Below, one piece after another: positions 1 to 25,927 of a stretch of 64,000 bases of DNA. The notes beneath the pieces were generated by a model. It saw only the letters and a program-made list of their open reading frames with translations, ran no database searches and was not told the DNA's origin. The stretch's first letter is position 1. Each line of letters begins with the position of its first letter. The position numbers and the translations under genes were made by a program. Origin of the DNA: a virus. Lineage: Duplodnaviria > Heunggongvirae > Uroviricota > Caudoviricetes. The stretch lies in the IMG/VR virus record IMGVR_UViG_3300027304_000003; one strand, 5' to 3'.

Positions 1-3000
1 TAGTCAGCCTTTTTCTTTTCAAAAAGCTTTCTCATAAAGTCTACACCTTTCTCATTACCTTGTAGTGTGTTGTATAGATTTGATAATGAACCTCTTATAT
101 CTTCAGACATAATTCTAAATACATTTCTCATTCTTCCCCACTCATAGGCATCAGATCCAGCGTTGAATTTTAAGTTACCATATCTTACATCTACAAGTCT
201 AGGAATCCAGTTCTTAAATAACATGAAAGACTTACCATATATATTTAGGTTAATCTTTCTAATATCATCTTCAGATAAGTTACCTAATGCAGCTTTACTT
301 AAAGACTGCACTTTTCTTCTTAATTCTAATACGCTATCAGAAGATCTTTCTACACCAGGGATTTCTAATTTACCATCTTTAATAGTAGCAACCTTCATGA
401 TTCCTTTATCTTCAATTAGCTTTTTAACATCATCTTCAAACTTCTGTTTGAAAGCTTTTTGTTCTTCAGCTGTTCCTTGATATTTCTTTTGATAGTCTGG
501 TTGCTTTCTTAAATACTCTCTAGCATTTACCACCTCACCATCTACTATAATAGTATTACTTAAGAAGCTAAAGAAGTTAGCTGACTGTACATACAAGTCT
601 GACTTTCTCATCAAGATCATTAAAAACTCTTGGATGTTCTCCTGACTTAACTTACTAATAGATAATGTCTTAGCAATTTCTTTATTATAATTATCTGTTA
701 AAGGAAGGAAGTATTCTAATGCTGCAATTCTTTTATCCTTATCATTACCAGTCATCTTACCTAACATCATCCAATACTCAGTGGCTGCAAACTCTTCATG
801 TGTAAAGTATGTACCAGCGTTGATAATAGACTGAGCTGTACCACCAAACAAGTTAGAAAGAGCTGATAGAACGTTGAATCCTAATGCATTGATTTGATAT
901 GTATTATTAATTTGATTAAGTACCTTGTTTACGCTAAACTGTCTACTAGCTATGTTCTCTGGAAATATTCTACTATTAACACCTAACTTGGCAAGACCAT
1001 TATTAAGTGATTCACCAAAGTTACCCATCTTACCTAATAACTGATCAAAGGTTTCGCTTTCTATATACTTCTGTCCATACACAATACCCTTCACCATATC
1101 TTCTAATAGCTGAGTGTTCTCAGTGTTATCTGGTGTATATTCTAACTCACCTTTTTCATTTGTTATAGTCTTGCCATATCTAGATGTAGCAATAGCTTTC
1201 TTGTTTCTTTCTACACTAATAAGTAATCTAGCTTGTGCTTCTATATCAGACATTTGTTTAAACTTAATAGCCATCTCATTATAAAGAGCCATGTTTCTAA
1301 ACAAGTCTGTACTATAATCTGTTTCTAGTTCTCTAGTTAAATAGATTGGAACTCTGTTCACTGGTCTACCTGTTAGAGGATCAGTCTCACCATATCCTAA
1401 ATCACCTTCATCTACAGATATGTTTCTTAAGAACTGTTCACCTATAGCTATCTTACCACCAAAGATTAACTTCTCCATCATTCCTTTTCTAACCCAAGGA
1501 AGGAATACCCTTGCTTCTTTTGCATGGATATATCCTATAGATTGGTAGTAGTTATTTCTTTCTATAATGTAATCATAGAAATCTTTAGCTGGTTTAACGT
1601 TCTTAAGTTCTTTCCATTCAGCAGATTCCCATTTCTCTTTAGGAAACTTCTTAATAAGATCATATTGTAACCACCCAAGACCTTCAGTTGTAGAAGTGTC
1701 ATACATTCTTTCAGCTTTAGCAATCTCTTGCTGAATAGCTTTTTCTCTTTCCTCTCCTTCTTCTACTCTAGCCTTTTCATTAATGTATTCAGTTTCTTTC
1801 TCAAGTCTTTCTTTTAAGAACTTATTATATTCAGAAATATCAATATTGTCTTTAATCCAATCAAAGTTTTTCTCACCTACATTTTTAGTAAGTTCTTTAT
1901 AAAACTGAGGATCATATTGATCAATTAATTTATTCTCTCCTTTCTTCATCAAGATATCAAAGTAGTTCTTAGGAATAAGTCCTTTAGACTTAGCCCACTC
2001 TTCATATGCAGTTTGAAGAGTTTGTAATTTTTTAGTTTCATCAAGTGTTTGCTGAGCACCTATACCAAATGCTTTGTTTGCCATTCTATATAAAACCTGT
2101 ATAGCCTTAACCTGTGTTATTGATGTAGAAGAAAACCACTTGGCAAACCCTCTAACAATCTTCTCAGGTTTAAGTATATCAGATATACCTTGTCTATTAG
2201 CAACAATTTTATCAGCAAACTCATCCATTACTTCTAATAGTTCTGTATTTAGATCCCTAGCATTATCAGCAGCATCTCTTAAGTCTTCTCTTAATTTCTT
2301 ATCTTCTTCAGATAACTCTCCTTGGAATAAGAATTTAAGATCTGTATCTAATGTAGCATAAGTTTGAATAGCTTCTTGTGCTCCTATAATTGAATCAGTG
2401 AATTCATCTATTTCTTCCATAGAGAAAGACTTAGGATCTGTACCTTTCCATTTATTATTATATGTATCAATATTAGTTTGAATCTGTTTGTTCAATACCT
2501 TAGCTTGATATATCAATGGCACAATGTTCTGCTTCATCTGCAATTGCCTAATAGCAGAGAACAATGCGTTTAACTGTTCAGCTTTAGATAGTTTCTGAGA
2601 AGGAAGAGCTTTGATATTAGATATCTGTTTGTATACAGCGTTAAGCTTTTCTAATAACTTGTCAATCTTTTTATTACCTGTTTCTTCTTTTTCAAGACCT
2701 ACAGGAATTAAATAGTTTTCTTGTATATTCTGTATATTAACATCTCCAATCTCCACTGAAGTTAATATAGGAAGTACATTCTCTTTAGCACTACCTCCTT
2801 CATATACTGCTCTGATAGGAATCATTCTTGTTTGTTTAAAGTCTTTATCCTTTAAACTGAACATTGTTTTAATAATAGATTTGTATTGGTCCATTTGTAG
2901 GTTCCAAGAATTAACCTTGTACCAAGGAATATCTCCTTTAGATTTTTCAAGATTAATATCCATAAACTTCCAATCTAAGATGTTTACCTTACCTGATTCT

Positions 3001-13400: not shown

Positions 13401-16400
13401 ATACAATGGATTAAACTCAACATCCTTACCATCTTTAGCTTTCTTTTGAACATCTTCTGACATCAATCTTAATGCTTCAAAGATACTCTTAGCTTCATCT
13501 GGTGTAAACTTTCTATTGTTTAACCACTGCAATGTGTCACCATATTGCAACATTGGTCTTCCTTTAGGGATATTATAGTTTTCTCCATTGTGAGAAATGA
13601 TTCCTGTTGTAGAAACTACAATTACATTAGCTTGATTCTTAATCTTCTTTTCAGGGATTAAGTTATCACCAACATGATTAGTTTCAGGCTTACCATCTAC
13701 AGGAGTTTCAACAGCCATACCTCTAGAGATAGAGAAGCTGTATAACTGTGGATTGTTAGGATCTGAAGCAAACACATCTGCCCTTGCTTTCTTCCAAGCC
13801 TCCATATATGCTTCTGCTTCTGCCTCCTCACCTTTTTTAAATCTAGGCACAGGATTGCCTTGAGCATCTTTGTAATTATAATACAATGATGCTGTAGGCA
13901 TATTAGCAAATACTAAACTATTAACATCTGCTTGTGTACCATCTACTTTAGATAAACGCTTACCATCTTTATCAACATAATAAAGAGTGCTACCCTCTTG
14001 TTCCACATAAACAGCAGTTACCAATCCATTATCTACATCAATAAGCTTTGCTTGCTCCTCAGGTGTAAACGTTTCTTGGCCATAAGCTACATTATCAAGA
14101 GTGGTTAATCCTAATCCTTTATATTGTTTAGGAGTGACAAGCATCACTTTGATGTTGTCTCTATTAGAGAAGTTCTTAATATTATTTAAGAACTGTCTTG
14201 TACGTATTTGATATGTCTTAGAAGGAGCAACACCATCATCCATTGAGTCTACAGTGGAGATAAAGAATATATCAACTCTCTTCTTCTTAGGTTCTTTTAC
14301 TTGCTGCTCTTTGCTTGGGTCATCAGTAGATACTGCTCCAGACTTTATTTCTATTCTAGTTTGAGCAGCTCCTAACTGATTAGCTATCTTCTGTAGTTTC
14401 TCTTGATCTGTTTGAACTCTACTGAAACCAGATAACTTTCTAGGATTAATATCATAGATGTCACCATTAACATCTTCTATCTTAATTGAACCATCTGGAT
14501 TAAGAGCCAAAACCTTAATCTTCTGTAAGTTATTAAACTCATCAGTTAGTTCATCAGATCTTTCTTGTGCTTTTTCTTTGCTAGGAAGTATCTCATATGT
14601 TCCATCAGGAGATACAACTTGCCATCTATCATCATCAAGTTTATTAATCTTTGTCTTATACACCTTACCCATCTCATACTCTCTATCCACCTCAAGATTC
14701 TCAGCTTGTTTATTAGCATTGTTGAATCTAAACTTTACAGGTTCTTTAGGTGTCTCTGGTGTAGGAGCAGTTTCTTCTTTCTTCTCTTCCTCATTTACAA
14801 CAGCATCTTTATCAGAAGCCATTTCTTCTGCCTCTTTGAAGTATTTCTCAAAGCCTTCTTTAGTAGACATCTCATCATAAGCCTTAGATGCATCCTTCTT
14901 TCTTTTTTCTAAAGCGTTGATATCTACACTATAATCCATTAATTCTTGAGCATGTAAAGAAGCTACAGATTTACCTAATGTAGCATCTTGACCATTCAAC
15001 TCAAAGTTTAATAAGCTATCAAATGTTTTATCATCTACCTTACCAGTATTAAGTGCTTGGGCAATTAGTTCAGATCTTGTACGTAATGCTTTGATCTGAT
15101 CATTTATTTTCTTCTTATCTACAGGTGTAGTGTAATCTGTAATAGTCTTCTTTAAAGATGTAGCTTTCTCTTCATAGAACTTAGCTAATTCTGCAAGACC
15201 TTGATTATTAGTAAGTTGTGATAATACGTCTGTAGTGATATTAGGATTAATCTTATTAACAGACTCTTGAATAGATTGAATTCTACTATCTGCAAGCGTT
15301 GGCATTGCAGCAAAATAGGTTAAGTCTTTCTTATACTTTTCAAATGTAATATAGTTGTTAGCCTCAACAATACTATCTATATTATCAGCATTATAGTTTA
15401 TCTTAAATGGATTCTTAAATGTAGTATTAACAGTTTCATATGTATCTTTAATATCATTTGATTTGGCAATCATACCATCTACATATTCACTTACAGTGGC
15501 TCTGTTTGTAGAATTGAAATCCAATTGGAACATACTTTCAAACTGTTCTTTGGATAGGTTTTTCAACATATTCAATTGCTCAACTGTTACATCATGCATT
15601 CCTGATGGAAGACGAGATGTTACAAAGTTGAAGAACTCATCAGCCTGTAAGTTTTTATATTTAAACACATCACCTGAAGCAGCAGCTTCTTCCATATCTT
15701 TTGCAATACCTGCAGAAGTTACAGTGTTATCATAGTTATTCTGTAATGTACTAGTAATACCCACTTGATTAAGTACATTAGTTGCTGTAGCTAATCTAGC
15801 ATCTTTACTTAATCCTCTCTTAGCATCAATACCACTTTGTACACCACCAACAACAAGACCTGTTAATCCACCAATCAACATGTTCTCAAGACCTTCTGTA
15901 CTAGTAAATTGTTCATTCAATCCATAGACAGTGGAATTGATTAATTCATTAACACCATTCCATTGTTCCTTATACTTATCACTCTTGTACTTTCTTGTGT
16001 AATAATCATATGTTCCTCTCTCAGCTGCAAACTGTCCACCTTCTTCAAACACACCCTCTCTAAATACATTAGCACCTGTTGGTCTAACACTTTCCCATAC
16101 CTTTCCTAAAACAGATGTAGCTGCCTTTTTTTCAAACACATCTAAGCTACCTTCTTTTAATCCTACTTTACCAAGTCCTTCTAACTCTTGTGTAAGTGAT
16201 CCAGATATAGCTCTGCTGCCTGGAACACCAACCATTGTTTTAAATAAGTTATTGAACTGTAATGAGTTGGATACAGTGAGTAATGCCATGTTAATACCAA
16301 ACCTGGTATTCATAGCATTTGTAGAAAGGTTTTCTATTTGTTGTAAATCATCTCCTGTAGGCTCTTCTCCTGCATGAGTGAGTTTGTATTGGTTAGTTAA

Positions 16401-17381
16401 TTCATCCTTAACCATACTATATCCATTCCTAGACTCAACACCAGCTTCTGTCATAGCAGAACCTAATATAGCTGTGGTAGTTCTAAATCCTTTTCCTAAT
16501 TTTGCAGCTGCTGCCAATTGAGCAAGTTCAGTTACTTTGAACATCTGAGCTTCTGTCTTACCAAGTCTTTCACCTAATTGTTCAAGTCTTCCTAATTGAG
16601 AAATTTGCGTTGCCCCTAATCCTCTACCTATAGCAGTCTCAGCACTAAATAATTTATTTAGATATAATGAAGCCTTACCAATTTGGTTAGCTAATAGTGG
16701 AATCTCACCTATACCTTCTGTTACAGCACCTATTGCAATATCTTGTACAACAGCACCACCAACAGCTCCTAACATAAATCCTAGGTTGGGAATAAACTTC
16801 TCACCCCACCAATATGCATTTCCTTTCATAAAGGGAATAGCAGATAAGAAAGGATTCTCTCTAACATACTTACTAGCATAGTTAGGAAGATCCTCATTTA
16901 TATTTTTTACCCAGTTATCAATAGACCCTTCATATCCATCTGGATCTCCTGATAACTCAGATAGATCTTTTGATCTTGCAGCATCTAATACATTAGGAAA
17001 GTTTGTTAAAGATTGAGCAAATGTTCCAGCTCCTATCAATCCCATCTTAGCAATACCATTACCTAATATCTTATACCAAGGTTGGCTCTCTGCATATACA
17101 TCTTCTAAATCAGGCATGTTCCTATCATAGATAGGATAGCGTCTATTTGCATATATTTCAGCAGCAGAAATAGAACCAAAAGATTTACCAAATCCTTTTG
17201 GAGCCACATCTGGTAAGTTTATTATTTCATCAATACTTAATCCACGTTGTTTTTCAGGGCCATATAAAGCTCCTCCAATAGATAAATCTACTGGTTTTGC
17301 AGAACCTAAAACAGATTTAGGTGCACCTAATTCACTTAAGTAATCAGTATCTTGTATAGGTTCTTGCTCAGACATTGCCAT
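4461..17381 (-). CDS. Giant 4306-aa virion protein. It has an RNAP beta-prime-like DxDxD motif (DFDID, nt about 7651-7665) and an HExxH zincin motif (HEIFH, nt about 11700-11715). Candidate crAss-like virion RNA polymerase/ejected multidomain protein.
   Basis: One uninterrupted 12.9-kb ORF. The motifs AGSDFDIDKL and EYHEIFHGIFGG are read directly. It lies at the distal end of the structural operon, where crAss-like phages place their giant RNAP-containing proteins. Confidence 0.85.
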   Translation of the reverse strand: MAMSEQEPIQDTDYLSELGAPKSVLGSAKPVDLSIGGALYGPEKQRGLSIDEIINLPDVAPKGFGKSFGSISAAEIYANRRYPIYDRNMPDLEDVYAESQPWYKILGNGIAKMGLIGAGTFAQSLTNFPNVLDAARSKDLSELSGDPDGYEGSIDNWVKNINEDLPNYASKYVRENPFLSAIPFMKGNAYWWGEKFIPNLGFMLGAVGGAVVQDIAIGAVTEGIGEIPLLANQIGKASLYLNKLFSAETAIGRGLGATQISQLGRLEQLGERLGKTEAQMFKVTELAQLAAAAKLGKGFRTTTAILGSAMTEAGVESRNGYSMVKDELTNQYKLTHAGEEPTGDDLQQIENLSTNAMNTRFGINMALLTVSNSLQFNNLFKTMVGVPGSRAISGSLTQELEGLGKVGLKEGSLDVFEKKAATSVLGKVWESVRPTGANVFREGVFEEGGQFAAERGTYDYYTRKYKSDKYKEQWNGVNELINSTVYGLNEQFTSTEGLENMLIGGLTGLVVGGVQSGIDAKRGLSKDARLATATNVLNQVGITSTLQNNYDNTVTSAGIAKDMEEAAASGDVFKYKNLQADEFFNFVTSRLPSGMHDVTVEQLNMLKNLSKEQFESMFQLDFNSTNRATVSEYVDGMIAKSNDIKDTYETVNTTFKNPFKINYNADNIDSIVEANNYITFEKYKKDLTYFAAMPTLADSRIQSIQESVNKINPNITTDVLSQLTNNQGLAELAKFYEEKATSLKKTITDYTTPVDKKKINDQIKALRTRSELIAQALNTGKVDDKTFDSLLNFELNGQDATLGKSVASLHAQELMDYSVDINALEKRKKDASKAYDEMSTKEGFEKYFKEAEEMASDKDAVVNEEEKKEETAPTPETPKEPVKFRFNNANKQAENLEVDREYEMGKVYKTKINKLDDDRWQVVSPDGTYEILPSKEKAQERSDELTDEFNNLQKIKVLALNPDGSIKIEDVNGDIYDINPRKLSGFSRVQTDQEKLQKIANQLGAAQTRIEIKSGAVSTDDPSKEQQVKEPKKKRVDIFFISTVDSMDDGVAPSKTYQIRTRQFLNNIKNFSNRDNIKVMLVTPKQYKGLGLTTLDNVAYGQETFTPEEQAKLIDVDNGLVTAVYVEQEGSTLYYVDKDGKRLSKVDGTQADVNSLVFANMPTASLYYNYKDAQGNPVPRFKKGEEAEAEAYMEAWKKARADVFASDPNNPQLYSFSISRGMAVETPVDGKPETNHVGDNLIPEKKIKNQANVIVVSTTGIISHNGENYNIPKGRPMLQYGDTLQWLNNRKFTPDEAKSIFEALRLMSEDVQKKAKDGKDVEFNPLYANFLQNVLFWKKGADTKNNQMYIDDRTMDLYLGGKKYNFANLAISEKEIVSQLQNTFNTVNNDSVKKNDEEFTELYFEDKYLKDRQWPNYQSYLLSSKLPNGKGRSIKDTPLSTSVTKPSDRVPYNYRQKYVTLGGLELAVQKITKPVAPVAKGGATEIGGYKMDGTTTHTRELKALGNVTFTARLNSNGVPAVTVDTIENLESIVADPAKTAPYFDFLKNNKDASGKSLFDATRSEQELMYDFASIAIANQLNKMKNAETAPAAQPAPVVSNEKGFQGYKGGFENTGKGTVQGDGKDKAMRKVADGFIGESVSTNNKSFVTSTQRIENLKPLSSTDTSYKEIADKTGTNYEGLDNNPSLQSGNDDGIIMLARNSKFSGKGLQKSTKDAILKAKNNGAEFVVGDMPGVDIQFIDYLQEIGAKFTIYHTGATSRTTIVGLVDDIAPAPTVQENVEKLEQLEDTVDDAEEKALEDEINKQIAEKVNALGKTKAPKKRYREIAGLDVPRMTDAELQLFKEWHAKNAAGIPFEVLQRVMTTNDGRQAWGAFENGVAKFYKSAARGTEYHEIFHGIFGGFLSAEERQLIFDEFKSKSGKFKDRATGSMIYYEEATDQQAEERIADDFADFRLGKLPAKSIGERILKFFRSIIQFVREFVNKPSKKDELFKTIEAGRFKDTKLNPAVYNQLTQWSVIPGLDEPTTHESVQDVAARFFFEVFSKNMDLYNPKLLTSPEIFDTIKEEFAEEGKLDVLGEEGWSQLVKKSREFLRTFKIQFDENNVIVFNNDDNTNRDYAPEPFSVDWKKQSSFPIKITVGSLVLTVPTNQENALRLQMPDEVISGSAKGFMLLNFSRAFATILNKISNTSSIGKVVDKLLTLAKQDSNYVRLWSKLGGTIDKLGSENKETAIDYSKFQAHDWRLFINFYQTFTKQHPNARIQYVSDDEVYTGSAELSDAIDDVVEGWIEGIKALSKDSKSLIVLDKPNKVYKVGDLSNIEIKNPEQMVDFLSKIGVIFPIDVYNKLTTREKNVFGRAIGGLLTSLRSKSDILSSVTSKLLDIKGPLNAMGEMLVRVTNPNFDPTHINVEGERTNGYAENNNSSVFENEWREAGTLENLKQARPELNDPFSTNSLILKKDGLYIDEDGNIKRDLKVGYIQGTKDVDTDDGTSTSKLTLGNRYTQEINENVNGRFYILLPAESSTEWQMDLGINVPFKQFGTKIGWDTTYKIFQGYLKDDIALAKDADVRKKLKNIGNRAYDLRFFKDILSEDMLAKINTELVMKSASDEEVIAFIAENEEEINGSIKSYFDEYINDTIATLKEYGQVVPSANGKALAYPMLNSVFAKISGINRYNLTDEKLRNLIEYVNINYVISNIEFHKILFGDPYQFALKEGESEETKRIKSFLSPRRTTFDMPEYNEFLNNEFNKAGEIELTPDDLGYHKHKSHTNTVTIKEIYVEGGLMGRTKEADAQSWIMDTTNREVKLKNAQWTDEAEIFHQWQMAYTRNRMAAKGKYTYTNDTLKKQDAALIETPVPKYGVEVLKPIVTGNKLGKTYFELVLDKFSQLPLYYQAIEGTTLEGLYIKMWEEKIGYAILESGRKMGTTEAFDLYKDGKLNPEPFNNLVQVPWKAYGIQVETNYDVVKAQTRGSQPTKLVTVDLFDNGVPVSQRAKEATDRNNNILDLMHENAYNVLLERLGIEDLGTEFILANKQAVSNTLVYEMLRRELDENAKDTVQLDSKGEFPIPFEASPSYKQIKDILYSVVQKTMVSPKVNGGPKVQVSVTGWENLEKGRRLAIKTEDGYKEISREDYDKLSDEEKKKVVLTDDTLKFYTKDDPYMEIMLPHWFGDTLRKTTKYTTDEEIINYLNITEEGKSILRGIGFRVPAQELSSLVTFRVKKFLPQFMGESVVVPSEITTLAGSDFDIDKLNTYLKSIYIDVNGNIRLVKWLGSEEATKDFFRGVYKDTIQRDIDKIEEFEEFRSKLVDVLSKLERIEGAASPESLESALTPSELDFFYDRLSIFKAITDQAAQKDITAVDYMNKQIEDLSINKEKLTKDILSNSLREDYVKDMYKRSLENEYYDSMEELLTLPENFERLISPVNDAGLEKLSVRIGKLVNPKGDQVKNKILNRNFMTKLRHYFVTAKRWIGIAATNITSHSLFQKGQIYLNPERFFMLPQQDRKFIGDGSIILPHNKVKIGDKEYASLSGTKTADGKKQYISSRLSGYGTSFVDVANKPYIVELVTSDLSVGTFMFLERIGAGEYTGIFMSQPIIREYLKQLDSQNKKGLFSKFDIDSIKSNFVTTNKAIETARIDISNLEANIADYYAGNELGIERNAEQHAILNEFLKYAKLAEYNFDLTQAINYDTTRYRSGDTLFKKQVRTDITIARSPFSGIAELLDPENPKIFIAKQRHYLDLSMEGMGVILKLEQDQFRINVIDPLLKPYARNKYVGADDFERIANKLKASFLDYIIQTKTGFNSEINKLFVNPKTSVSAQLEEAKKISSNPILNDFKVISSPRPDGVMSVKLTVNIKGSAYDKNLYIGYMRQLRDTPSTNALYKDLVKMALLQGTYENGVSIASIIPIEDSSKYVAPIMAPLMYDESLDAFADGGFQRNNWKDNKVFKKFEPKFWLADEAPVDVQVNDFGDIIGDIYQYQSSDYFPNIDKFGLSTDRRILALSEEYDSFYLSNDYLLVPRVVQIKGGERVDMKTGLSITNYSYVERKNQGDMSLKNVYGYKKVYYDDGTPVTYQTTTYKGEVINKHVYKLINLRGDGRLVSEYYTDSRKSVLNNGTEKIENEISDDEIRIYFNELGEQNFVSSQSTEPYIQIPDYVTDEKLKNADGTKRFAQASKLGTITINPPKSVDEFFNYFEGKEGGPTSEQKAKVLNKLADKGYTIDVLKTILNSVDKITNFLVLHEKNHVENNDIDVYWKNGKDLLTDDKVDIETRATIAALDKLGGIPSVIDIEFEDVNTDDTEGSDNPTPCGTKQ

Positions 17382-17382
17382 A

Positions 17383-20091
17383 TTATTTCCAAGTTTTTTG
17401 TGCTTCTGTTATATTATCCTTATTCCAAAGACTCATTATTTGTAACATCTTTCCTTCTCCCTGATATCCATCACTTAATTCTTTTCTTTTCCAACCATCT
17501 GTTTTAGGATCTTTTACATATCCAACAAATAAAAATTGATCTGTCTCTGATCTTCCTGTATTGTTTGGACTTCCAATAATATCATATCTAAATAAAGGAG
17601 CATCTTTAGCTTTTTCTAATTGAGGAAGATCATATCCTGAATATCTAGCATTCACTGCATTAGTAGGATTGTCATCTGTTGCACCTGCTAAGTTTGTTGT
17701 CTTAGTAGGAGATGTATATATTAAATCTCTTATTTGATTAAATGGACTCACTTGTGTTGCTTGTGGAAAGTAGTTACGTAAATCTTCAGGAAGTACAGGA
17801 ATTATTTCTACAGTAGTTCCTTGTGATACTATTATTTGTGCAGTGCCATCTCTAAACTTTTCAAGTTCCCAACCAACTTTTGCACCTCCTTCAGCACCAC
17901 TTTTACGAGTGTTCCATAGCTTAGCTATATTATCAGCATTCCAATTTGGTTTTTGTTCAAGAGCATTATATCTACCTACAGCTTTGGTCAAGAATTTATC
18001 AATGGCTAATTCATCACCTTTTACAAGGTCAGGAGTTAAAGTTGCCTTTTGTGAAACAGTACTTGGACTTATACCTACCAAAGCTTCAGATTCATACTTA
18101 GGTATATTTCCTGTTTCACGTTTAACTATATCTGATGCTGTATTAAATTTATTTAAAGCATCTGTTTCACTAGCAGTTAAAGCTTTTCCTGTTTGTCTTT
18201 TTAAAAGAGGAGCTATTATTGAATAGTATTTACCACCTTGATAATTTGAAAAGAAATCATTTGCTCCTTTCACATCAAAAGTAGCAGGAATGCCAGGACG
18301 ACCTGGTACACCATACTCTGATGTAGCAGCTGATGTATAACTTGGAACACCTTCTCTTTTATATTCAGCCATTCTAACAGCAACATCTGCTAGTTCTTTT
18401 GATGTAAACGTTTTTCCATTAATTACAACATCATTAGTACCAAGAGCATTTGCTGTTTTATCAATAGCTTTATCTAATCCTTTCTTCTCTGCATAGCTTA
18501 TTGCATTTATTTTTGACTGAGCTGCATTATCTAATGCTTCAGCTTCTCTTATATATGCTTTTTGATTAGCAGTAAGATTCATTTGAGGATTCTTCTTATA
18601 GTTATTTAATAATCCCCCAAGAGCAGTTGTATATTGATTAGCCTGTTTTAAATCAGGAAATATATATTTAGCCCATTTGCTATCTAATGTAGCCTTCTGT
18701 GATAATATATCTACTAAATCTTTTCTTTCGCTTCCCACTGTAGGGATGGCTTTACCTGTACCAATTGTTCCCTCAGTTACATCTAGTAAATTAGTAGGTG
18801 CAAGCTCTTGTGCTTTTACTAATTTTTCCCATGCAAGTCTATTTTGAGCATTTGTAATACTAGCCCATCCTCTTCTACTTTCATCTTGAAACTGAAGTTG
18901 ATCTAATTGAAACTTTTGTTTAGCTAACAGTGCTTGAGATGCAGGGTTAGCTACCCTTTCTTCTTCATATGTTTTGAAAGATAACTCTTTAGCAAGACGA
19001 CTGAAATGGTTATCTACATAAACATCATATTTAACTGTATCTAATCCTTGCTCATTAATCTTTTTATCAAGAGTAGAAAGTTCTTCATTCATTTTTTTAT
19101 CAAGAACTCCACCATCATACATGTCTGTCAAGTTCTTAAGAATTGCATTTCCTTGAGACTTTTGTGCACTTGTTAATTTAGGATTTTGTAACTCAACAGC
19201 TAAATTAGTAATCTGTTCATTTAGCATATCCTTTTTTAACTTATATGTATCTAGTATAGAATCTTGAAAAGTTTTAGTGTTTGCTCCTTTAAACTTAGCC
19301 CAACTAGTAATCTTTAACTGTTCTACATCATCACTAGTTAAGTTATCAGTAAAGGTATCATATATCTGTTGAGCAGGTGTTCCTTTTACTTTGATCTTAA
19401 GCATATCAAGATCAAGTTGTTTCTCTCCTCCTTGTGAAGGATCTATAGAACTTATTGTAACTTTCTTCTTTGTTGTAGGATCTATAACAGTTTTAAAGTA
19501 AAGTGTTTCTCCTTTATCATTTCTTACAAAAGGATTATCAACACTTGTTGATGAAGGGTTCTTCTTAAGTTCTTCTGCTAATCCTCTAAGCTTCTTATCT
19601 ACATCTGTATAGGGTGTATATCTTCCTTGGAAGGGAGTTTTTAAATCTGGATTAGTCATCCAGTTATTTACATTAGATTCATAAAAATCTTCATTGTCTT
19701 TACCTGACTTACCTGCCTTTCTAGCAGCTTCTATTTCTGAATACCCTTTCTTAATAACACTTGTGGAATATACAGCATTTTGAACTATAGGATCTTTAGC
19801 CACCTGACCTGTCATACCAGCAACAGAATTAACTAATTGTTGATTAGAGAAATCACCAGCAGCTACAGTCTTTAATCTGTTACCAAGCTCATTCATCTTT
19901 GATTCAAGATACTGCTTATGTTGAGGCTTAGCTATTTCTAGACCAGATACTCTATCAATATAGCTCTGAACTTTTCGTACACCTTGGTCATATTGGGCCT
20001 GTTTGGCCATACCAACCTGGGCCATGGCCTCAACTGGGAGTTCCTGGATGTAGGGGTTAAACTGTGATATTTGATCTGTAAACGATGCCAT
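17383..20091 (-). CDS. 902-aa virion (cargo/internal) protein, function unknown.
   Basis: Long ORF 1 nt upstream of the giant gene; no recognisable catalytic motif. Confidence 0.8.
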   Translation of the reverse strand: MASFTDQISQFNPYIQELPVEAMAQVGMAKQAQYDQGVRKVQSYIDRVSGLEIAKPQHKQYLESKMNELGNRLKTVAAGDFSNQQLVNSVAGMTGQVAKDPIVQNAVYSTSVIKKGYSEIEAARKAGKSGKDNEDFYESNVNNWMTNPDLKTPFQGRYTPYTDVDKKLRGLAEELKKNPSSTSVDNPFVRNDKGETLYFKTVIDPTTKKKVTISSIDPSQGGEKQLDLDMLKIKVKGTPAQQIYDTFTDNLTSDDVEQLKITSWAKFKGANTKTFQDSILDTYKLKKDMLNEQITNLAVELQNPKLTSAQKSQGNAILKNLTDMYDGGVLDKKMNEELSTLDKKINEQGLDTVKYDVYVDNHFSRLAKELSFKTYEEERVANPASQALLAKQKFQLDQLQFQDESRRGWASITNAQNRLAWEKLVKAQELAPTNLLDVTEGTIGTGKAIPTVGSERKDLVDILSQKATLDSKWAKYIFPDLKQANQYTTALGGLLNNYKKNPQMNLTANQKAYIREAEALDNAAQSKINAISYAEKKGLDKAIDKTANALGTNDVVINGKTFTSKELADVAVRMAEYKREGVPSYTSAATSEYGVPGRPGIPATFDVKGANDFFSNYQGGKYYSIIAPLLKRQTGKALTASETDALNKFNTASDIVKRETGNIPKYESEALVGISPSTVSQKATLTPDLVKGDELAIDKFLTKAVGRYNALEQKPNWNADNIAKLWNTRKSGAEGGAKVGWELEKFRDGTAQIIVSQGTTVEIIPVLPEDLRNYFPQATQVSPFNQIRDLIYTSPTKTTNLAGATDDNPTNAVNARYSGYDLPQLEKAKDAPLFRYDIIGSPNNTGRSETDQFLFVGYVKDPKTDGWKRKELSDGYQGEGKMLQIMSLWNKDNITEAQKTWK

Positions 20092-20177
20092 AATAATAAT
20101 GTTAGCAAATGTAATTTAAAAATTTGGATCTACCAAGAGCGATAATGATTTTTGTTAAATTGCTCTAACTGAAATAG

Positions 20178-23100
20178 TTAGAGACTCTTTAATGCTTTTA
20201 CGATAGAGCTATTCCTAGCTTTTGTCTTTGGTGTCTTCCCACCCTTCTTTTGATTATCAAAAGCACCATCTAATTCTGACATAGAAGGACCACCAGCTGC
20301 CATCTCGTCCTTAGTTAATGTTCTAATTCCAACAGGTTCTCCTGTTACAGAGTCTATTGTAAATCTTTTGTTAGCTGGTAAACCTGCAGCTGAAAGACCA
20401 CCCCTTCTTGAACCAGCACCTGATAGATCAAATTGAGCAGGAGCATTCATATTAATAGCTCTGCCACTTGGGGAGAATCTGAATCCATACATGTTCTCCA
20501 TAATAGCTAGCTTTCTATTAGAAGCTCTTTGTTTTGTAACCTTATCACCTATAGATTTAAGAGCTTCAATAGTTTGAGCTTTGGTATTAGACTTAGCTTG
20601 AGACTGTCTAACGTATTGTTGATCATTGATTGCCAAGTTTTTAAGCTTAGCATCATTTATAATAGCTCTGTTCTTATCATATACTCCCATTTTATTTGCC
20701 TGATTAACTCTATTTGATTCTCCAAATAACTTGTTCTTAGCTTCTATTGTTTGAGCCATAACTGCTGCTTGGGCAGCAGGATTATTACCAGCAGCTCTAA
20801 GAAAAGCTCTAGATTGAGAATCAATAGCATTAATTTGGTCATTGAAAGAAATGTCATATGGAGTATCCAACATTGGTTGAAACTGTTGAGCTTGTACAGG
20901 TTCTAACTGATTGTTAGCCAACGCATAGTACTCACCCATCAATTGATCAGGGTTTAAGTCTTCATTAGCATTAGAAGGTCTTAACCAAGGTTCTGCATAA
21001 GACAATGCTACTTTACCTATATCTCCTAATTTTTTCCAATCAATTGGTTTACGTTGCTTTTTATCTTTAGTATTAGTTTCAGCTTCCGCTTTGGTAAAAG
21101 GTCCAGGTAAGTCTGGCCATTCTAACAAGCTATAATCTATCTTTGGTTTCTTAGAAGAACTAACTACAGCTTCTGGTAAATCTGTTGCACCAAGTCCCAT
21201 GAATCCTGGTTTACTCATTCCTCTTTTCATCATCTCACGATCTGCATTATTTAATGAATAGTAATTTTTAAGAATCTCCATACGTTCAGGATAGTTAGGA
21301 TCAAGCAATGCTTCATCATCAAGACCTTTAAGAGTTTCAATTCCTTCTTGAGCTTTCTTCATTTTCTTACCATTCTTTCCCATCATGCTTATATCTGTTT
21401 CTTTCTCTAACTTACCTTCAGCTAGCTTGTCACTTTTAACACCTAACTCATTAGCTGTTTTGTGAATAGAGTCTTGTACTAACCCTGCTTCTTTAATTTT
21501 GTCAGCATTAATCTTTTGTTGTGCTTTTGCACCCATAAGATTAGCCATACCAGAATTCATACCTAATTTATCATATGAACTATTTCCATCATACTCTTCA
21601 ATTAAGTCAAGTCCTTTTTGAATAGTCTTTAATTGCTTTGCATCATTCTTAGCTACGTCAGCTATGTATGTTTTAAACTTCTTACCCTTTGCTTTTGGAT
21701 CTCCCATAAGGTCTGCTATTTCTTTATTAATTTTAATGTTACCAAACACAACAAGGTTCTCTTTAGATCCACCACCTTCTAGGTTATTGCCATCTTCTGA
21801 GCCATTGTCTTCTAGAACAGTAAATGGTTCACCACCTTCTACCTCTACACCATTCTCACCATACTGAGTTTGTATGCCACCATTGTCATGAGATGCTCCT
21901 CTGAACATTCCTATCTCACCACTAGGTAAGTTAGGATTGTATGATAAGGTCTCAGCATATCCACCTTCTCCTATTTGTAACTCTCCACCTAGTGCCATCT
22001 TTGAACCATTTTGAGCTTGAGGCATATCTGGTCTACCAGTGTATAATGCTTCTGCACTAGGAGCTGTATACCCCACTTGTGCAATGTGTCCACCAGCTCT
22101 TAACATGTCTGCATCATGTGGAGGTTTCAAAAGATCTTTAGCACTATACTCACCAAACTTAGTGAATGTCTGTGGCTGCCAATCATGACTAATCCATCCA
22201 CCATTCTTTACATTTGCATTAAGAGGACCTTGAGATCTGTTCTCCATGAACCCCATCATACTTGTACTCATTGCAGTCTTGTCTTTTTGTTTTTGTAATT
22301 CTCTAGCTTGTTTAGCACCACCTGCTAAATTACCAAAGAATGTACCAGCTAATCCACCAACTGCACCACCCAATGGTCCAAATAAAGCAGTACCAGCTGC
22401 TGTACCTACAGCACTACCAATTTGTGCTTGACCAGAATCTTGGAAGTATTCTCCAAACTCTGCTTTAGGTATATCACCACCACGTCTGTATTGTTTGTAT
22501 GTTTCTTCTAATGGTTCAAATCCAAGATCATTGTACATATCACCAGGATTGTACATGTTCTGAATCTCTGTAGGATTGCCACCAATCATTGTACCATTCT
22601 GAGCTTGTAAATAGTTTGTTTTATTACCATAAGGATTACCTAATTGTCCTGGTTGCACTTTATCATCTTCTGGTCTTACATATTGATTCTTAGGTCTTTC
22701 ATTAGTTTGTTGAGCTGTCAAAGCAAGTCCTGATAATTGAGTAGCTTGTTCTGCTTTCTTCTTAGCTTTCTTTTGTGCACCAATTGCTTCGATACCTCCT
22801 ATTATTGCTGGCAATGCTCCTAGAGCTGCCATACCTGCACCAGCAGCATCAAACCCACCAGCTTTAGCACCTGAATTAATTGCATTCTTACCTAACAACT
22901 GATCAGCAGAAGGAGTGGCAAACTGAGCTGACATATCAGATCCCATCTGTTGTCCACTCATCTTAGCCATAGATGCATTATTAAAAGCATCTCCCACTTG
23001 CTTCATACTACCATCTGGATTCATCCCAGCTTGATTTGTTCCTTGAAGATAATTATTAAAGTTTTGTGGTTTCTTTTTCATTCCTATTCCATACTGAGCA

Positions 23101-23279
23101 ATAGGAGGATTGCCAAAGTCAGTCAACTGATGTAATTGGTCATTAACCATTTTACTACCCATGGCAGCTTTCTTAAACTCTTTCTTGTGAGCTTTCATAA
23201 ACGCTTCCTCTGATGGATATTTCTTATAGAACTCCTTCTCAGATTTAACTCCAGCAATCTTTAACATTTGGTCTTTCAT
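20178..23279 (-). CDS. 1033-aa Gly/Ala/Met/Gln-rich virion protein (internal/ejection-protein-like). It has a glycine-zipper-like hydrophobic segment AGGFDAAGAGMAALGALPAIIGGIEAIGA.
   Basis: Long ORF with low-complexity composition typical of phage internal/ejection proteins. Confidence 0.75.
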   Translation of the reverse strand: MKDQMLKIAGVKSEKEFYKKYPSEEAFMKAHKKEFKKAAMGSKMVNDQLHQLTDFGNPPIAQYGIGMKKKPQNFNNYLQGTNQAGMNPDGSMKQVGDAFNNASMAKMSGQQMGSDMSAQFATPSADQLLGKNAINSGAKAGGFDAAGAGMAALGALPAIIGGIEAIGAQKKAKKKAEQATQLSGLALTAQQTNERPKNQYVRPEDDKVQPGQLGNPYGNKTNYLQAQNGTMIGGNPTEIQNMYNPGDMYNDLGFEPLEETYKQYRRGGDIPKAEFGEYFQDSGQAQIGSAVGTAAGTALFGPLGGAVGGLAGTFFGNLAGGAKQARELQKQKDKTAMSTSMMGFMENRSQGPLNANVKNGGWISHDWQPQTFTKFGEYSAKDLLKPPHDADMLRAGGHIAQVGYTAPSAEALYTGRPDMPQAQNGSKMALGGELQIGEGGYAETLSYNPNLPSGEIGMFRGASHDNGGIQTQYGENGVEVEGGEPFTVLEDNGSEDGNNLEGGGSKENLVVFGNIKINKEIADLMGDPKAKGKKFKTYIADVAKNDAKQLKTIQKGLDLIEEYDGNSSYDKLGMNSGMANLMGAKAQQKINADKIKEAGLVQDSIHKTANELGVKSDKLAEGKLEKETDISMMGKNGKKMKKAQEGIETLKGLDDEALLDPNYPERMEILKNYYSLNNADREMMKRGMSKPGFMGLGATDLPEAVVSSSKKPKIDYSLLEWPDLPGPFTKAEAETNTKDKKQRKPIDWKKLGDIGKVALSYAEPWLRPSNANEDLNPDQLMGEYYALANNQLEPVQAQQFQPMLDTPYDISFNDQINAIDSQSRAFLRAAGNNPAAQAAVMAQTIEAKNKLFGESNRVNQANKMGVYDKNRAIINDAKLKNLAINDQQYVRQSQAKSNTKAQTIEALKSIGDKVTKQRASNRKLAIMENMYGFRFSPSGRAINMNAPAQFDLSGAGSRRGGLSAAGLPANKRFTIDSVTGEPVGIRTLTKDEMAAGGPSMSELDGAFDNQKKGGKTPKTKARNSSIVKALKSL

Positions 23280-23299
23280 ATTATACTCTATTGTATGAT

Positions 23300-25048
23300 T
23301 TATTTATATTTATTTAACCAGCCACCATTTTTCTTTTCTTCAAAATATCTAGGTTCCATTCCTTTAGGAATATCTCTTGAATAAAACTGATTACCTACAG
23401 GATTATTTAAATATGTTTGAGGATCAAAGTTTGGATTTTGTTTTTTATATTTAGGTTCATCCCACCAATTAATAGGACCTCTTGTAACACTTTGTGTACC
23501 AGTAGATTTATTTATAGTTCTAGGTCTTACGATATGATCATACCCACCTATATCATTTTTAACTCTACCAATTCTTCTAAGATCTAATCCTGTTCCAATA
23601 ACTTCTCTTTCTGCATTAACCATATCAGTTGGGTTTACACCTATACTTGCAGCCCAATCTTTAGATTTACCTTTAAGTAAATCAAAAGTCTTATCTGAGG
23701 GTATTCCATATTCATTTGCTAAAAACTCATTACCCATTTGTTTAGCATATCTGTTTGGTATAACTAATCTATCTACAGCACCACTTTGATAAGATGGTAA
23801 TCCCACACCAGCTGAAAATGAACTTGGACGATCTCCTAAATTCAATTTATTACCTACAAACTCTGCACCTAATGATTGGTTTTCAGGATTAAACCTTCTT
23901 GTAAGGATAGCATTATTATTAATAGTTAATTCATTATTATTGATAGCATTATTTAAAGCATCTTTTTTAGATTGATCAATTGTTCCCCATCTTCCTGTAA
24001 ATGGTTTACTATCATATTGATATTCTAATAACAAAGCTCTATCAGCATCTGATAGTTTATTTGCGTTAGCTATTCCTTTAAACATAGAATCACTTGCTTC
24101 TTGACTAATTCCTTTAGCAGGACTTTTCCAAGCAATAGGTAAAGCAGACTCACCTGTAGCTACTGTATTATAAATTCTACCAGTTTGTTTAACAGCAGCT
24201 TTGGCACCTTTACCAACAAGCTTACCTGCTGCCAATCCACCTTCCATTATCATTGCTGCTTCTATAGCATCTTGCATATTCTCAGCTCCTTTGCTAGCAG
24301 CCATTCTATTTAATGGAGTATTGTCTTCAGCTATTCTTTGTAACTTCTGTTTATCAAACTTAGCTTGTTCTCCTGGTTTAGGAGTGTATTGAGAAATAGT
24401 AGACTTAGGTCTATTCATTCTACTTAATCTTTCTTCAGCTTCTTTCTTTAAAGAATTTGTGTTAGAAATATTATCATACTTACTTAACCAATCTCCATTC
24501 TGAGCCATAGGAAACTCTGTAACCTTCTCACCATCAAACTTATAATCTTGATCAGGATACATCATCTGTGTATCACCTGTATCAGATACACCAAGTACAG
24601 GATAGTCAACTCCCTGCATAGTGATGTTATTAGAACCTATCTCTGTTATTTCACCTGGGTAAGCCCATTGTCCTCTATCATCTTTAATCACAGAACCATT
24701 CTTACTTATAGTCTTAGGTTTGAAGTCTAGTCCATTCTGATAGAAACTCATTTCCTTGCCATTCTGAGCACTTGCTTTTGTCTTCTTAGTATACTTACCA
24801 TTAGCAGGAGCTGAGCCAGCTGTGCGTGCGTATGTGAATCCTACAGCACCTGGTAAAGCACCTCCCATTGCAAACTGTCCACCCCATGCTGGAGACTTCC
24901 AGTTGTATGCTGTATATCCTTCTCCTACAAAGTTAGGACCTGCAGATACTTTGACATCATTAACATTAGGTTTCTTACCATAGTTATCTTTAGTCTTTTT
25001 CTTTAAGACCAAACCTCCTTGTTCATATTTGTCTAACCACTTTGCCAT
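23300..25048 (-). CDS. 582-aa virion protein, unknown function.
   Basis: Long ORF. Its stop overlaps the downstream gene's start by 1 nt (translational coupling). Confidence 0.8.
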   Translation of the reverse strand: MAKWLDKYEQGGLVLKKKTKDNYGKKPNVNDVKVSAGPNFVGEGYTAYNWKSPAWGGQFAMGGALPGAVGFTYARTAGSAPANGKYTKKTKASAQNGKEMSFYQNGLDFKPKTISKNGSVIKDDRGQWAYPGEITEIGSNNITMQGVDYPVLGVSDTGDTQMMYPDQDYKFDGEKVTEFPMAQNGDWLSKYDNISNTNSLKKEAEERLSRMNRPKSTISQYTPKPGEQAKFDKQKLQRIAEDNTPLNRMAASKGAENMQDAIEAAMIMEGGLAAGKLVGKGAKAAVKQTGRIYNTVATGESALPIAWKSPAKGISQEASDSMFKGIANANKLSDADRALLLEYQYDSKPFTGRWGTIDQSKKDALNNAINNNELTINNNAILTRRFNPENQSLGAEFVGNKLNLGDRPSSFSAGVGLPSYQSGAVDRLVIPNRYAKQMGNEFLANEYGIPSDKTFDLLKGKSKDWAASIGVNPTDMVNAEREVIGTGLDLRRIGRVKNDIGGYDHIVRPRTINKSTGTQSVTRGPINWWDEPKYKKQNPNFDPQTYLNNPVGNQFYSRDIPKGMEPRYFEEKKNGGWLNKYK

Positions 25049-25914
25049 TACTTATAAGAGATTTGAGCAGGTGTAATAATGAATTGAGAAACAATGTGAG
25101 CTATAGAACTGTTATCAAGGATATGTCTTACCTTCAAGTCTTTAGCTCTTAATGGTTCTTTCTTAAATGATCTTTTTCCATAATCCATATTCACTTGATT
25201 TACAACCTTATCTATTGATAAAGATTCACAACTTGTTGTAAATAAAGGTAATGCTTTATTTTTAACTAACCCCCAAAAAGTATTATATTGATAGAAATTA
25301 TCTGACTTAGTATAAGTGATAGTTTTGCTTTCAGTATTATAGATTGGGTAGGTTAAGTATTGTTTTAGGTTATGCATTGGCTTAGGTACTAACTCTAATA
25401 TACCTGTGGACTGTTGGCTATTGTATAATACAGCTTTGTTAAACCATTGATTATCAACAGCTATCTGAGCATTGTCATTAAACACACCATCTAGAATAGG
25501 TAGGTAGTTATATACCTTACTGTAGTCTTTTACATTCTGAAGTATCTCATCATAGCTCTGATAAGAGAATGGATACTCAATGATGTAAGGTTCTACATTG
25601 TCATAGTATTTATTATAGTGTACTACACTTGTTAAGTGTCTCCACATAGACGCTGTATTACACACAGTGTATCTTAATGCAGCAAGTTGTTCTATAGTGG
25701 CAGTACCAATTGTAACCTCTAAAATTGTACGACACTTACCTACAGATGTTATAATAATCTTAGTAACAGCATCATCTACACTGACAGTATACCCATCAAT
25801 TAGATTTTGCTTAGTGATGTCAGTGCCCAAGACTGTCCCTAAGTTATCAGTGATATCAAAGGGTCCTGTTCTGCCACCTGAGCATGTTAATCTTATTATT
25901 ACTGTTTTAGCCAT
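25048..25914 (-). CDS. 288-aa protein. Its N-terminal domain of about 70 aa is paralogous to the N-terminus of the 284-aa protein at 34564-35418 (shared appendage-anchor-like module).
   Basis: TVIIRLTCSGGRTGPFDITDNLGTVLG...GYTVSV...IIITSVGKC aligns with TVLVTLTLAGVDTGPFNLYSDADGFTT...GYSLTGV...TIIRTQSEGAC. Confidence 0.7.
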   Translation of the reverse strand: MAKTVIIRLTCSGGRTGPFDITDNLGTVLGTDITKQNLIDGYTVSVDDAVTKIIITSVGKCRTILEVTIGTATIEQLAALRYTVCNTASMWRHLTSVVHYNKYYDNVEPYIIEYPFSYQSYDEILQNVKDYSKVYNYLPILDGVFNDNAQIAVDNQWFNKAVLYNSQQSTGILELVPKPMHNLKQYLTYPIYNTESKTITYTKSDNFYQYNTFWGLVKNKALPLFTTSCESLSIDKVVNQVNMDYGKRSFKKEPLRAKDLKVRHILDNSSIAHIVSQFIITPAQISYK

Positions 25915-25927
25915 TTATATTATTTTA

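Follow-up and report, generated by a model that had tools for sequence, protein, structure and literature searches.

A probable cargo and transcription block in a distant crAss-like phage, with paired cysteines at the breaks in its chain of giant proteins

Introduction

The 64,000-nucleotide (nt) stretch of phage DNA analysed here (Caudoviricetes; IMG/VR record IMGVR_UViG_3300027304_000003), which we call the window, raises the question of what the five consecutive giant genes packed into positions 1 to 25,048 of its minus strand encode, and whether their size is exceptional. An earlier note, made from the letters of the sequence, had read them as virion-cargo genes. The observation is real and the cargo reading broadly right: the region is very probably the conserved block of cargo and transcription genes of a crAss-like podophage, lying directly downstream of the muzzle gene. 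In coding order we call the genes gA (582 amino acids, aa), gB (1033 aa), gC (902 aa), gD (4306 aa) and gE, which is truncated by the window edge. The one feature of the block that we did not find mentioned in the papers searched, and that deserves experimental follow-up, is a rule for where its giant proteins carry cysteine (Cys).

Results

The giant open frames and the extent of the block

The four open reading frames (ORFs) of 582, 1033, 902 and 4306 aa were confirmed on the minus strand, and re-translation of 4460..1 gave zero stops, with an ATG at 4457 and 1485 codons from there to the window edge, in agreement with the hand translation in the earlier note. Extending the contig leftwards, as had been recommended, completed the last gene at 1653 aa (L003 22925..27886), 168 codons beyond the window. 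Given the base composition of the coding strand, 8.3% of random codons should be stops, so the frames are not attributable to chance: the probability of remaining open is about 1e-162 over 4306 codons and about 1e-56 over 1485. The gaps of 1-3 nt that had been claimed hold for gC/gD (1 nt) and gD/gE (3 nt) but not for gA/gB (20 nt) or gB/gC (86 nt). Similarly, the statement that the genes occupy about 40% of the window is correct, but the full block (8476 aa, 25.4 kb) makes up about 21.6% of the genome, whose size of about 117.6 kb is indicated by near-identical contigs reaching 113.6 and 117.6 kb. The block ends at gE, since two collagen-repeat genes come next. Its sole sizeable non-coding stretch is the 86-nt gap (20092..20177), which is overlapped by a 9-bp inverted repeat (20163..20183); a scan of 17000-26000 for promoters and terminators found sites no more numerous than in shuffled sequence.

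gD is a predicted polymerase fusion

The earlier note had missed the nature of its largest gene, which by homology encodes a virion RNA polymerase (RNAP) fused to a second protein related to crAss001 gp47 and phi14:2 gp67. In BLASTP searches, gD residues 89-708 and 1867-2003 aligned with the two ends of gp47 (the N-terminal match covering gp47 81-721 at E 4e-22), and residues 91-539 aligned with gp67 residues 65-424 (E 8e-11). The family hidden Markov model (HMM) extended the first of these matches, aligning gD 90-1020 with gp47 82-1002, and matched a 1552-aa protein of the unclassified Leptolyngbya phage Lbo-JY46 (PP438436) at E 2.6e-82. This N-terminal module holds Gly-rich hydrophobic segments, for example at aa 202-220. 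At the far end of the gp47-like part lies a domain that the literature calls zincin-like: a profile match joins gD 1800-2017 to gp47 2023-2311, and a profile of the zincin region finds the gp47 C-terminal region 2079-2300, which has the motif HEAFH, at E 7e-27. The pattern GT.YHE..(E/H), which includes HEIFH in gD, is conserved just upstream of the fusion junction, with H1892 present in 108 of 110 sequences and E1893 in 107; at position 1896, 85 of them have E and 24 have H. gD therefore has both the N-terminal module homology and the C-terminal zincin-like domain of a gp47/gp67-like protein of the crAss001 type.

The remainder of gD matches polymerases. Residues 2870-3593 aligned with the phi14:2 virion RNAP gp66 (PDB 6VR4) at E 5e-24, placing GSDFDIDK of gD on GSDFDIDK of gp66, in which DFDID spans residues 1361-1365, and residues 2788-3787 aligned with crAss001 gp50 at E 7e-33 (both BLASTP). 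With the family HMM the matches reached gp66 102-1712 (E 2.1e-76) and gp50 1024-2295 (E 4.7e-44; gD 2751-4057). D3240, F3241, D3242, D3244 and K3245 are invariant in 109/109 sequences, and tblastn with the polymerase module returned 106-108 crass-like records annotated as RNA polymerase. gD thus combines the catalytic DFDxD with homology across the whole polymerase core. In a gD family profile built from 110 members, the gp47 match ends at gD residue 2017 and the gp66 match begins at residue 2022, indicating a head-to-tail fusion. Taken together, these alignments identify gD as a predicted in-frame fusion of a gp47/gp67-like protein, ending in a zincin-like domain, with a two-barrel virion RNAP of the gp66 family.

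Alternatively, the 4306-aa ORF could be an artefact, in which mis-assembly or a sequencing error erased the stop between two true genes, one gp67-like and one for the polymerase. The two parts are indeed separate genes in phi14:2 and crAss001, and among the 57 complete polymerase ORFs of related loci three are unfused. However, 20 independent contigs, drawn from different ENA and JGI assemblies, encode an identical 4306-aa protein, which argues that the ORF is not an assembly artefact, and the same fusion occurs in the other 54 of the 57 polymerase ORFs, from related but distinct loci. Moreover, 123 of the 150 best representatives of the family are at least 3500 aa long with the polymerase core at about residues 2400-3900, and the fused junction lacks the Cys pair that each true gene break has (see below). 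As far as the sequence data reach, the artefact reading is already refuted, and we regard it as scarcely credible.

Several other searches returned little. Pfam gave no significant family for six proteins, ten overlapping 600-aa pieces of gD and three isolated domains; whole-protein PHROG searches gave only weak matches for gD and gE; single-sequence PDB searches with gD, gE and the inserted domain gave no matches; and megablast found no phage genome matching gD. The C-terminal region of gD has an occupancy of about 0.5 in the family alignment. A second peptidase motif, HEKNH at gD 4234, was considered and dropped, as the motif is not conserved in the family.

gE and the movement of accessory domains

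By homology and position, gE is identified as a gp49/gp65-like RNAP-associated protein. It matched crAss001 gp49 (E 4e-7 and 2e-6 in BLASTP; E 6.5e-12 with a three-sequence profile) and the 1803-aa protein of cr4_1 (E 5e-6, BLASTP), and phi14:2 gp65 directly at E 0.01 only; its start codon lies 3 nt past the polymerase gene. Part of gE resembles a PD-(D/E)XK nuclease, and the motifs of this predicted domain are kept in homologues that are 52-54% identical (L012, L013). The protein has a weak match to PHROG 298 ‘exonuclease’ (E 0.006) and no Pfam match, the cr4_1 homologue is annotated as an exonuclease, and a profile of the nuclease domain matched crAss001 gp47 1753-1845 (E 1.4e-5 in a 20-sequence search space). 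Because the same predicted domain is found in gE here and in gp47 in crAss001, accessory domains appear to move between the giants.

A lineage-specific alpha/beta domain inserted in gD, with the motifs GFQGYKGGF..GKGT.QGDGKDKAMR and FVVGDMPGVDSQFIDYLQEIGAKFTIYHTG, is elsewhere a separate protein of 101-302 aa (P0271-P0297; L094 10001..10771), and so appears to be mobile between fused and stand-alone forms. Its AF2 model is confident, yet neither a structural nor a Pfam neighbour was found.

These movements bear on the possibility that the giants are mainly polyvalent anti-defence effectors (Iyer et al. 2017), that is, strings of enzymatic domains (zincin peptidase, nuclease, inserts) sent in to disable the host and cut apart by the peptidase, with transcription as one function and with terminal Cys unrelated to any chaining. 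Consistent with that possibility, the nuclease shifts from one giant to another, the zincin-like domain changes place (gp65 of phi14:2, the end of crAss001 gp47, the fusion junction of gD), the inserted domain is a separate gene elsewhere, and the polyvalent-protein concept takes in the N4 virion RNAP with its zincin domain. We nevertheless consider it improbable, given that no Pfam polyvalent-protein domain (e.g. MPTase-PolyVal) was matched, that most of the length is a conserved core common to gp47, gp66 and gp50 rather than a variable domain array, and that peptidase activity is uncertain because the ‘zincin’ motif is HExxE rather than HExxH in most family members. A polyvalent role would in any case complement the cargo and transcription role more than exclude it.

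The block is of ordinary size

The opinion that the block is extreme even for crAss-like phages proved wrong, as equivalent blocks and fusion proteins are similar in size in cultured crassviruses and metagenomic relatives. Equivalent blocks amount to 6990 aa in phi14:2, 7478 in crAss001, 7745 in the p-crAssphage-type LMMB, 7744 in crAss002 and 6798 in Lbo-JY46, or 16-25% of these genomes (20.9-25.0% in the first four alone) versus 21.6% here. Single polymerase-containing proteins measure 4070 aa in LMMB, 4245 aa in crAss002 and 4491 aa in cr4_1. When the polymerase core was scanned against 1.84 billion cluster representatives, 1906 relatives were obtained; 123 of the best 150 of them are at least 3500 aa long, most of the 150 fall between 3700 and 5650 aa, and the core lies at about residues 2400-3900. 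Giant transcription-block proteins are a published signature of crAss-like phages and in some of them are fused into one polyprotein. The size of the block is ordinary for crAss-like phages.

Cysteines mark the breaks in the chain of giants

The 8476 residues of the block include only two Cys, gD C4302 (five residues from the C-terminal end) and gE C3, which face each other across the gD/gE junction. This Cys content, 0.024%, is below both the 1.14% of the window's 28 other ORFs and the 2.7% expected from base composition. To place the pair in context, we surveyed 78 related viral loci (L014-L091) together with L092-L095, L001, L002 and L010. In the 78 loci, every one of the 61 distinct polymerase ORFs has its last Cys within 0-5 residues of the C-terminal end, and all 58 ORFs downstream of the polymerase have a Cys at position 3-6, which is usually their sole Cys. 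An N-terminal Cys is present in none of the 54 fused polymerases versus all three unfused ones, and the protein upstream of an unfused polymerase ends in its only Cys in both informative cases. Among gD family members of at least 3500 aa, 119 of 123 have their last Cys 0-8 residues from the C-terminus. Other adjacent ORF pairs of the related loci have both Cys in only 6 of 265 cases, four of which are cargo-chain junctions.

The same layout is found in named phages. In phi14:2, the sole Cys of gp67 is its final residue (1797 of 1797), gp66 has just two Cys (3 and 2179 of 2180), and gp65 has a single one at 3; in crAss001, gp47 has Cys at 2339 of 2341, gp50 at 5 and 2404 of 2412 plus an internal one at 1334, and gp49 at 5. 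The 1957-aa protein of LMMB ends ..SFSCM and the next begins MSCGN, the last Cys of the 4491-aa cr4_1 protein is at 4488 and its neighbour begins MICPN, and in Lbo-JY46 the 1552-aa protein ends in its sole Cys and the sole Cys of the 2748-aa protein is at position 4. One locus (L094) encodes three successive proteins of 2966 aa (Cys 2965 only), 256 aa (Cys 3 and 255 only) and 1281 aa (Cys 3 plus an internal 1020), and the 256-aa gene between the two giants corresponds to the domain inserted in frame in gD. Such internal links, with Cys at both ends, occur in L094, L049 and L066. In contrast, the outer ends of the chain (the N-terminus of the gp67-like protein and the C-terminus of the gp65-like protein) never carry such a Cys.

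Each break in the giant chain gp67-like, polymerase, gp65-like therefore bears a C-terminal/N-terminal Cys pair, and fused junctions lack the pair. On present sequences the rule appears to hold across Steigviridae, Intestiviridae, Suoliviridae, an unclassified environmental clade and one cyanophage. The virion RNAP of phage N4, a single ejected chain of 3500 aa, has 0 Cys, and the N4 replication proteins have normal Cys levels. Many fused polymerases (L014-L091) carry an extra Cys at about residues 2950-3400, near DFDxD, which gD does not have.

A proposed route for the cargo and a proposed disulfide chain

Others have shown that phi14:2 gp65-gp67 and crAss001 gp47, gp49 and gp50 are packaged in virions. 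By extension from work on those two phages, the five proteins of the block would be packed inside the capsid and tail and extruded, partly unfolded, via the portal and tail before the DNA. The small proteins would help to build a trans-envelope channel (relatives of gB carry a peptidoglycan amidase), and the polymerase would refold in the cell and transcribe early genes. The large proteins might instead be external parts such as tail fibres, or a polymerase joined to a tape-measure-like protein; Thermus phage P23-45 has a tape-measure-fused virion RNAP. Collagen-like fibre genes do lie just downstream of the block. We find an external location very unlikely, however: gp47, gp49 and gp50 are detected in crAss001 virions and absent from the resolved external structure, with volume estimates pointing to the capsid cargo zone; fibre or tape-measure families of PHROG and Pfam gave no matches; and external crass tail proteins are Cys-rich and disulfide-bonded (the muzzle ORF here has 27 Cys), whereas the giants are almost Cys-free, like the ejected N4 virion RNAP.

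Since a Cys pair stands at every break and none at fused junctions, we propose that disulfides link the giant cargo proteins of crAss-like phages end to end inside the virion, a proposal that we judge evenly balanced between true and false. Wherever the cargo chain is split, the peptide bond would be replaced in the oxidised virion by a disulfide between the C-terminal Cys of one protein (0-5 residues from the end) and the Cys at position 3-6 of the next. The linked giants (the gp67-like protein, the polymerase, the gp65-like protein and occasional small links) would then form one linear, redox-cleavable pseudo-polyprotein, a train that threads the portal and tail in a fixed ejection order and is reduced in the host cytoplasm, releasing its parts. 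The near-total loss of other Cys would prevent wrong cross-links, and evolution could swap a peptide bond (gene fusion, as in gD) for a Cys pair (gene fission) and back. crAss001 virions are known to contain disulfides, and Bayfield et al. have data sets for this phage in both reduced and non-reduced form.

Several points weigh against this model. The proteins are made in a reducing cytoplasm and would need oxidation after packaging, gut phages live without oxygen, and crAss001 gp47 is encoded on the strand opposite gp50. The Cys of crAss002 gp33 lies at residue 35 in the annotated protein, which fits only if the start is the internal MSC, and a lone C-terminal Cys with no obvious partner is found in small cargo or transmembrane proteins of gut crassviruses, namely in the 861-aa protein of LMMB (860 of 861; L092 4760..7345) and in crAss002 gp30 (550 of 557; L093 1409..3082). 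Against the cargo reading as a whole it counts that packaging, ejection and polymerase activity are carried over to this phage from homologues at 20-25% identity, and profile and hhalign comparisons gave no convincing link between gA, gB or gC and crAss001 gp45/gp46 or phi14:2 gp68-gp70. As to the annotation of crAss002 gp33, its start (L093 12104) is probably 32 codons too far upstream, and the internal MSCTPSNP resembles the conserved M-x-C-P-N N-termini.

The terminal Cys may also not be bonded to each other, serving instead as anchors to the portal, the capsid interior or the DNA end, in metal binding, or as parts of packaging peptides such as MxxCPNxN. The N-terminal Cys does lie within a conserved peptide (MATCPNINLP, MACPNINSP, MICPNLNDKT); the partnerless Cys of the LMMB 861-aa protein and crAss002 gp30 would suit an anchor; stand-alone proteins of the inserted-domain type have a Cys near the C-terminus in 22/27 cases, an N-terminal Cys at 3-4 being noted in only three; and two Cys taken by themselves are indistinguishable from two independent anchors on sequence grounds. 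We consider independent roles rather unlikely, because anchors would not be expected to disappear when two proteins fuse, whereas both Cys come and go together with fission and fusion (0/54 fused versus 3/3 unfused polymerases, plus the links in L094, L049 and L066), and because the outer chain ends never carry Cys. Two further explanations were rejected. Split-intein or ligation chemistry would have no room for intein halves, as only 0-5 and 2-5 residues lie beyond the Cys, and a lipoprotein signal does not fit, the N-terminal Cys being at position 3-6 and not preceded by a signal peptide.

The small putative cargo proteins

The idea that all five genes encode ejected or internal proteins fared differently for large and small genes. 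The two largest proteins are homologues of the virion-packaged phi14:2 gp65-gp67 and crAss001 gp47, gp49 and gp50. The three smaller ones match in position only, sitting where C1/C2 (gp45/gp46) of crAss001 and gp68-gp70 of phi14:2 sit, and comparison with gp45 and gp46 demonstrated no homology. By position, composition and lack of Cys, gA, gB and gC are putative cargo proteins. Cys is absent from 119/120 members of the gB family, from 120/120 of the gC family, and from gA. None of the three proteins has a Pfam or PHROG match, and the gB and gC family profiles found nothing in the PDB.

gB is a candidate envelope-penetrating ejection protein, an analogue of crAss001 C1 (gp45), which it resembles in position and in having a hydrophobic helix near residue 150. 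Its Gly/Ala-rich hydrophobic helices lie at aa 145-168 and about 283-320. The match to the Gly-rich transmembrane segment of gp45 is weak (hmmsearch E 2.5e-4 in a 20-sequence space; hhalign probability 30%), and profile comparison did not demonstrate homology to gp45, including its portal-binding domain (gp45 425-552). An AF2 model from a 58-sequence alignment had a mean pLDDT of 41.7, too poor for a fold search, and suggests a largely disordered protein with helices. Close relatives of gB (78-84% identical) have a 250-aa insert at about residue 232 that contains Amidase_2 (PF01510). This N-acetylmuramoyl-L-alanine amidase follows the first hydrophobic helix (in P0006, P0013-P0018, P0037 and P0084); gB of the window is without the insert, the insertion point falling at about 22580.

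gC has 1490 homologues of tightly conserved length (853-922 aa), and its N-terminal 380 aa match an 845-aa protein of Lbo-JY46 (hhalign probability 98.6%). Profile comparison gave no gp45 match for gC, and comparison of gA and gC with crAss001 gp46 gave hhalign probabilities of at most 0.5% and an hmmsearch E of 0.005 in the 20-sequence space. gA has a weak homologue in the 495-aa protein of Lbo-JY46 (BLAST E 2.6e-6; hhalign probability 84%). It contains three (G)GWL(D/N/S)KY motifs, starting MAKWLDKYEQGG, with NGDWLSKYD near residue 187, and ending NGGWLNKYK; proteins of two related loci (L018 and L038) likewise end GGWL(T/N)KY(K/N).

Genomic setting

The matches of the neighbouring genes place the block in a crass-type genome. 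The 1696-aa protein of the window matched the crassvirus muzzle family crAss_MUZ (PF25731, E 2e-37), and PHROG matches identified the portal (phrog_6547, E 1.7e-103), the terminase large subunit (phrog_6681, E 3e-82) and the major capsid protein (phrog_11589, E 4.6e-33), with tail fibre genes also present in the rest of the window. tblastn with the portal found Crassvirales genomes, at about 24% identity to classified crassviruses; the top E-value was that of Lbo-JY46 (29% identity, 9e-75). With crass-type muzzle, portal, terminase and capsid genes in conserved order, the window is recognisable as the structural arm of a distant crAss-like phage.

The muzzle is split into ORFs of 1696 and 288 aa with 13 nt between them, and the same split occurs on independent contigs. 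The 288-aa ORF corresponds to the C-terminal end of the muzzle family (phrog_15100 positions 1588-1781 of 1783) and matched residues 1461-1633 of the 1654-aa protein of Lbo-JY46 (E 2e-22). The smaller ORF has 4 Cys, in keeping with the Cys-rich character of the muzzle. The two collagen-repeat genes beyond the block encode 861 and 447 aa (L003 28052..32004). In a 98%-identical strain a 2631-aa ORF (L011 15128..23023) replaces the 861-aa gene, and the length of this fibre-like gene is highly variable.

Table 1. Features of the window, with predicted products; positions are those of the window
Feature	Position	Strand	Remarks
gE, first 1485 of 1653 aa	1..4457	-	starts MICKV; only Cys is C3, codon 4449..4451
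gE aa 345-600, predicted PD-(D/E)XK (RecB/Cas4-like) nuclease domain	2658..3425	-	GTKGHSD, GTVDFLA, ILDWK, QMDQY
gD, 4306 aa	4461..17381	-	predicted fusion of gp47/gp67-like RNAP-associated protein and gp66/gp50-like virion RNA polymerase
gD aa 4100-4306, variable C-terminal region	4464..5084	-	ends ..NPTPCGTKQ; only gD Cys is C4302, codon 4476..4478
gD aa 2022-4057, predicted virion RNA polymerase module	5211..11318	-	DFDID aa 3240-3244 at 7650..7664
gD aa 1800-2020, zincin-like domain	11322..11984	-	GTEYHEIFH (HEIFH 11694..11708); profile match to gp47
gD aa 1595-1775, lineage-specific inserted alpha/beta domain	12057..12599	-	
gD aa 90-1020, gp47/gp67-like N-terminal module	14322..17114	-	BLASTP, family HMM
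gC, 902 aa, conserved protein	17383..20091	-	Cys-free; positional analogue of crAss001 C2 / phi14:2 gp68
gB, 1033 aa	20178..23279	-	Cys-free; >2000 homologues; Gly/Ala-rich hydrophobic helices
gA, 582 aa, putative cargo/ejection protein	23300..25048	-	Cys-free; directly after muzzle gene
Muzzle, 288-aa ORF	25048..25914	-	phrog_15100; Lbo-JY46
Muzzle, 1696-aa ORF	25928..31018	-	PF25731; 27 Cys
Major capsid protein	44543..46096		PHROG match
Portal	48056..50641		PHROG match
Terminase large subunit	50641..52680		PHROG match

Discussion

Giant genes that encode a virion RNAP and its partner proteins have been published as a hallmark of the crAss-like phages, and as such the flagged block is ordinary. 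Our data add that fusion of the polymerase to its upstream partner is routine in a large environmental clade and in Suoliviridae such as cr4_1, with fused polymerases in at least 54 distinct loci and in over 100 cluster representatives. According to a 2026 paper on phage N4, it is unresolved how the three crassvirus RNAP-associated proteins relate to each other and to the single polymerase chain of N4; the terminal-Cys rule offers a concrete answer that could be tested cheaply in cultured phi14:2, crAss001 and crAss002.

Comparison with known systems

By its portal, the closest cultured relative of the window phage is Lbo-JY46, in which a muzzle of 1654 aa is followed by proteins of 495, 674, 484, 845, 1552 and 2748 aa. 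Almost all genes of this cyanophage are annotated as hypothetical. It has homologues of the muzzle, gA, gC and the N-terminal half of gD, but there is a break at the junction that is fused in gD. Neither a DFDxD motif nor a polymerase match was found in its 2748-aa protein, the C-terminal part of which matches gp49 and gp65.

In phi14:2 (Drobysheva et al. 2020/2021), as in the window, the genes stand in the order gp67-gp66-gp65 on a single strand, following the muzzle and the small structural genes, and the terminal-Cys layout is the same. phi14:2 differs in having three genes (1797, 2180 and 1421 aa), of which the window fuses the first two, and identity is about 23%. The zincin-like HExxH of phi14:2 is in gp65 (residue 245), whereas that of the window is at the gp67-like/polymerase junction. 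The cargo set of crAss001 consists of C1 gp45, C2 gp46 and the RNAP-associated gp47, gp49 and gp50 (Bayfield et al. 2023). The parts of gD resemble gp47 and gp50, gE resembles gp49, the share of the genome is alike (21.8% in crAss001 versus 21.6%), and the terminal-Cys layout agrees; in crAss001, however, gp47 lies on the opposite strand from gp50 and gp49, nothing is fused, and the PD-(D/E)XK domain is in gp47. LMMB and crAss002, judged by the LMMB product names and by the terminal-Cys layout, appear to have the polymerase fused to its downstream rather than its upstream partner.

Outside the crassviruses, N4 gp50 is likewise a giant, capsid-packed, ejected polymerase that is Cys-free and has an HExxH zincin-like domain. 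Unlike gD, it has a T7-like single-subunit fold unrelated to the two-barrel gp66 family, and it is one chain with no Cys-bearing partners.

The fusion seen in gD has its counterpart among the Suoliviridae in the uncultured phage cr4_1 (gp24-gp27), where two small Cys-free proteins (744 and 594 aa) accompany a 4491-aa fusion with HEAFH at 2002 and DFDxD at 3433, and the next protein, of 1803 aa, starts MIC. Unlike the window, cr4_1 uses recoded stop codons, with 38 in-frame stops under table 11, and the proteins of cr4_1, LMMB and crAss002 are 20-28% identical to those of the window. Both cr4_1 and the window phage appear to join the polymerase to its upstream partner by a peptide bond and to place Cys on either side of the break that follows.

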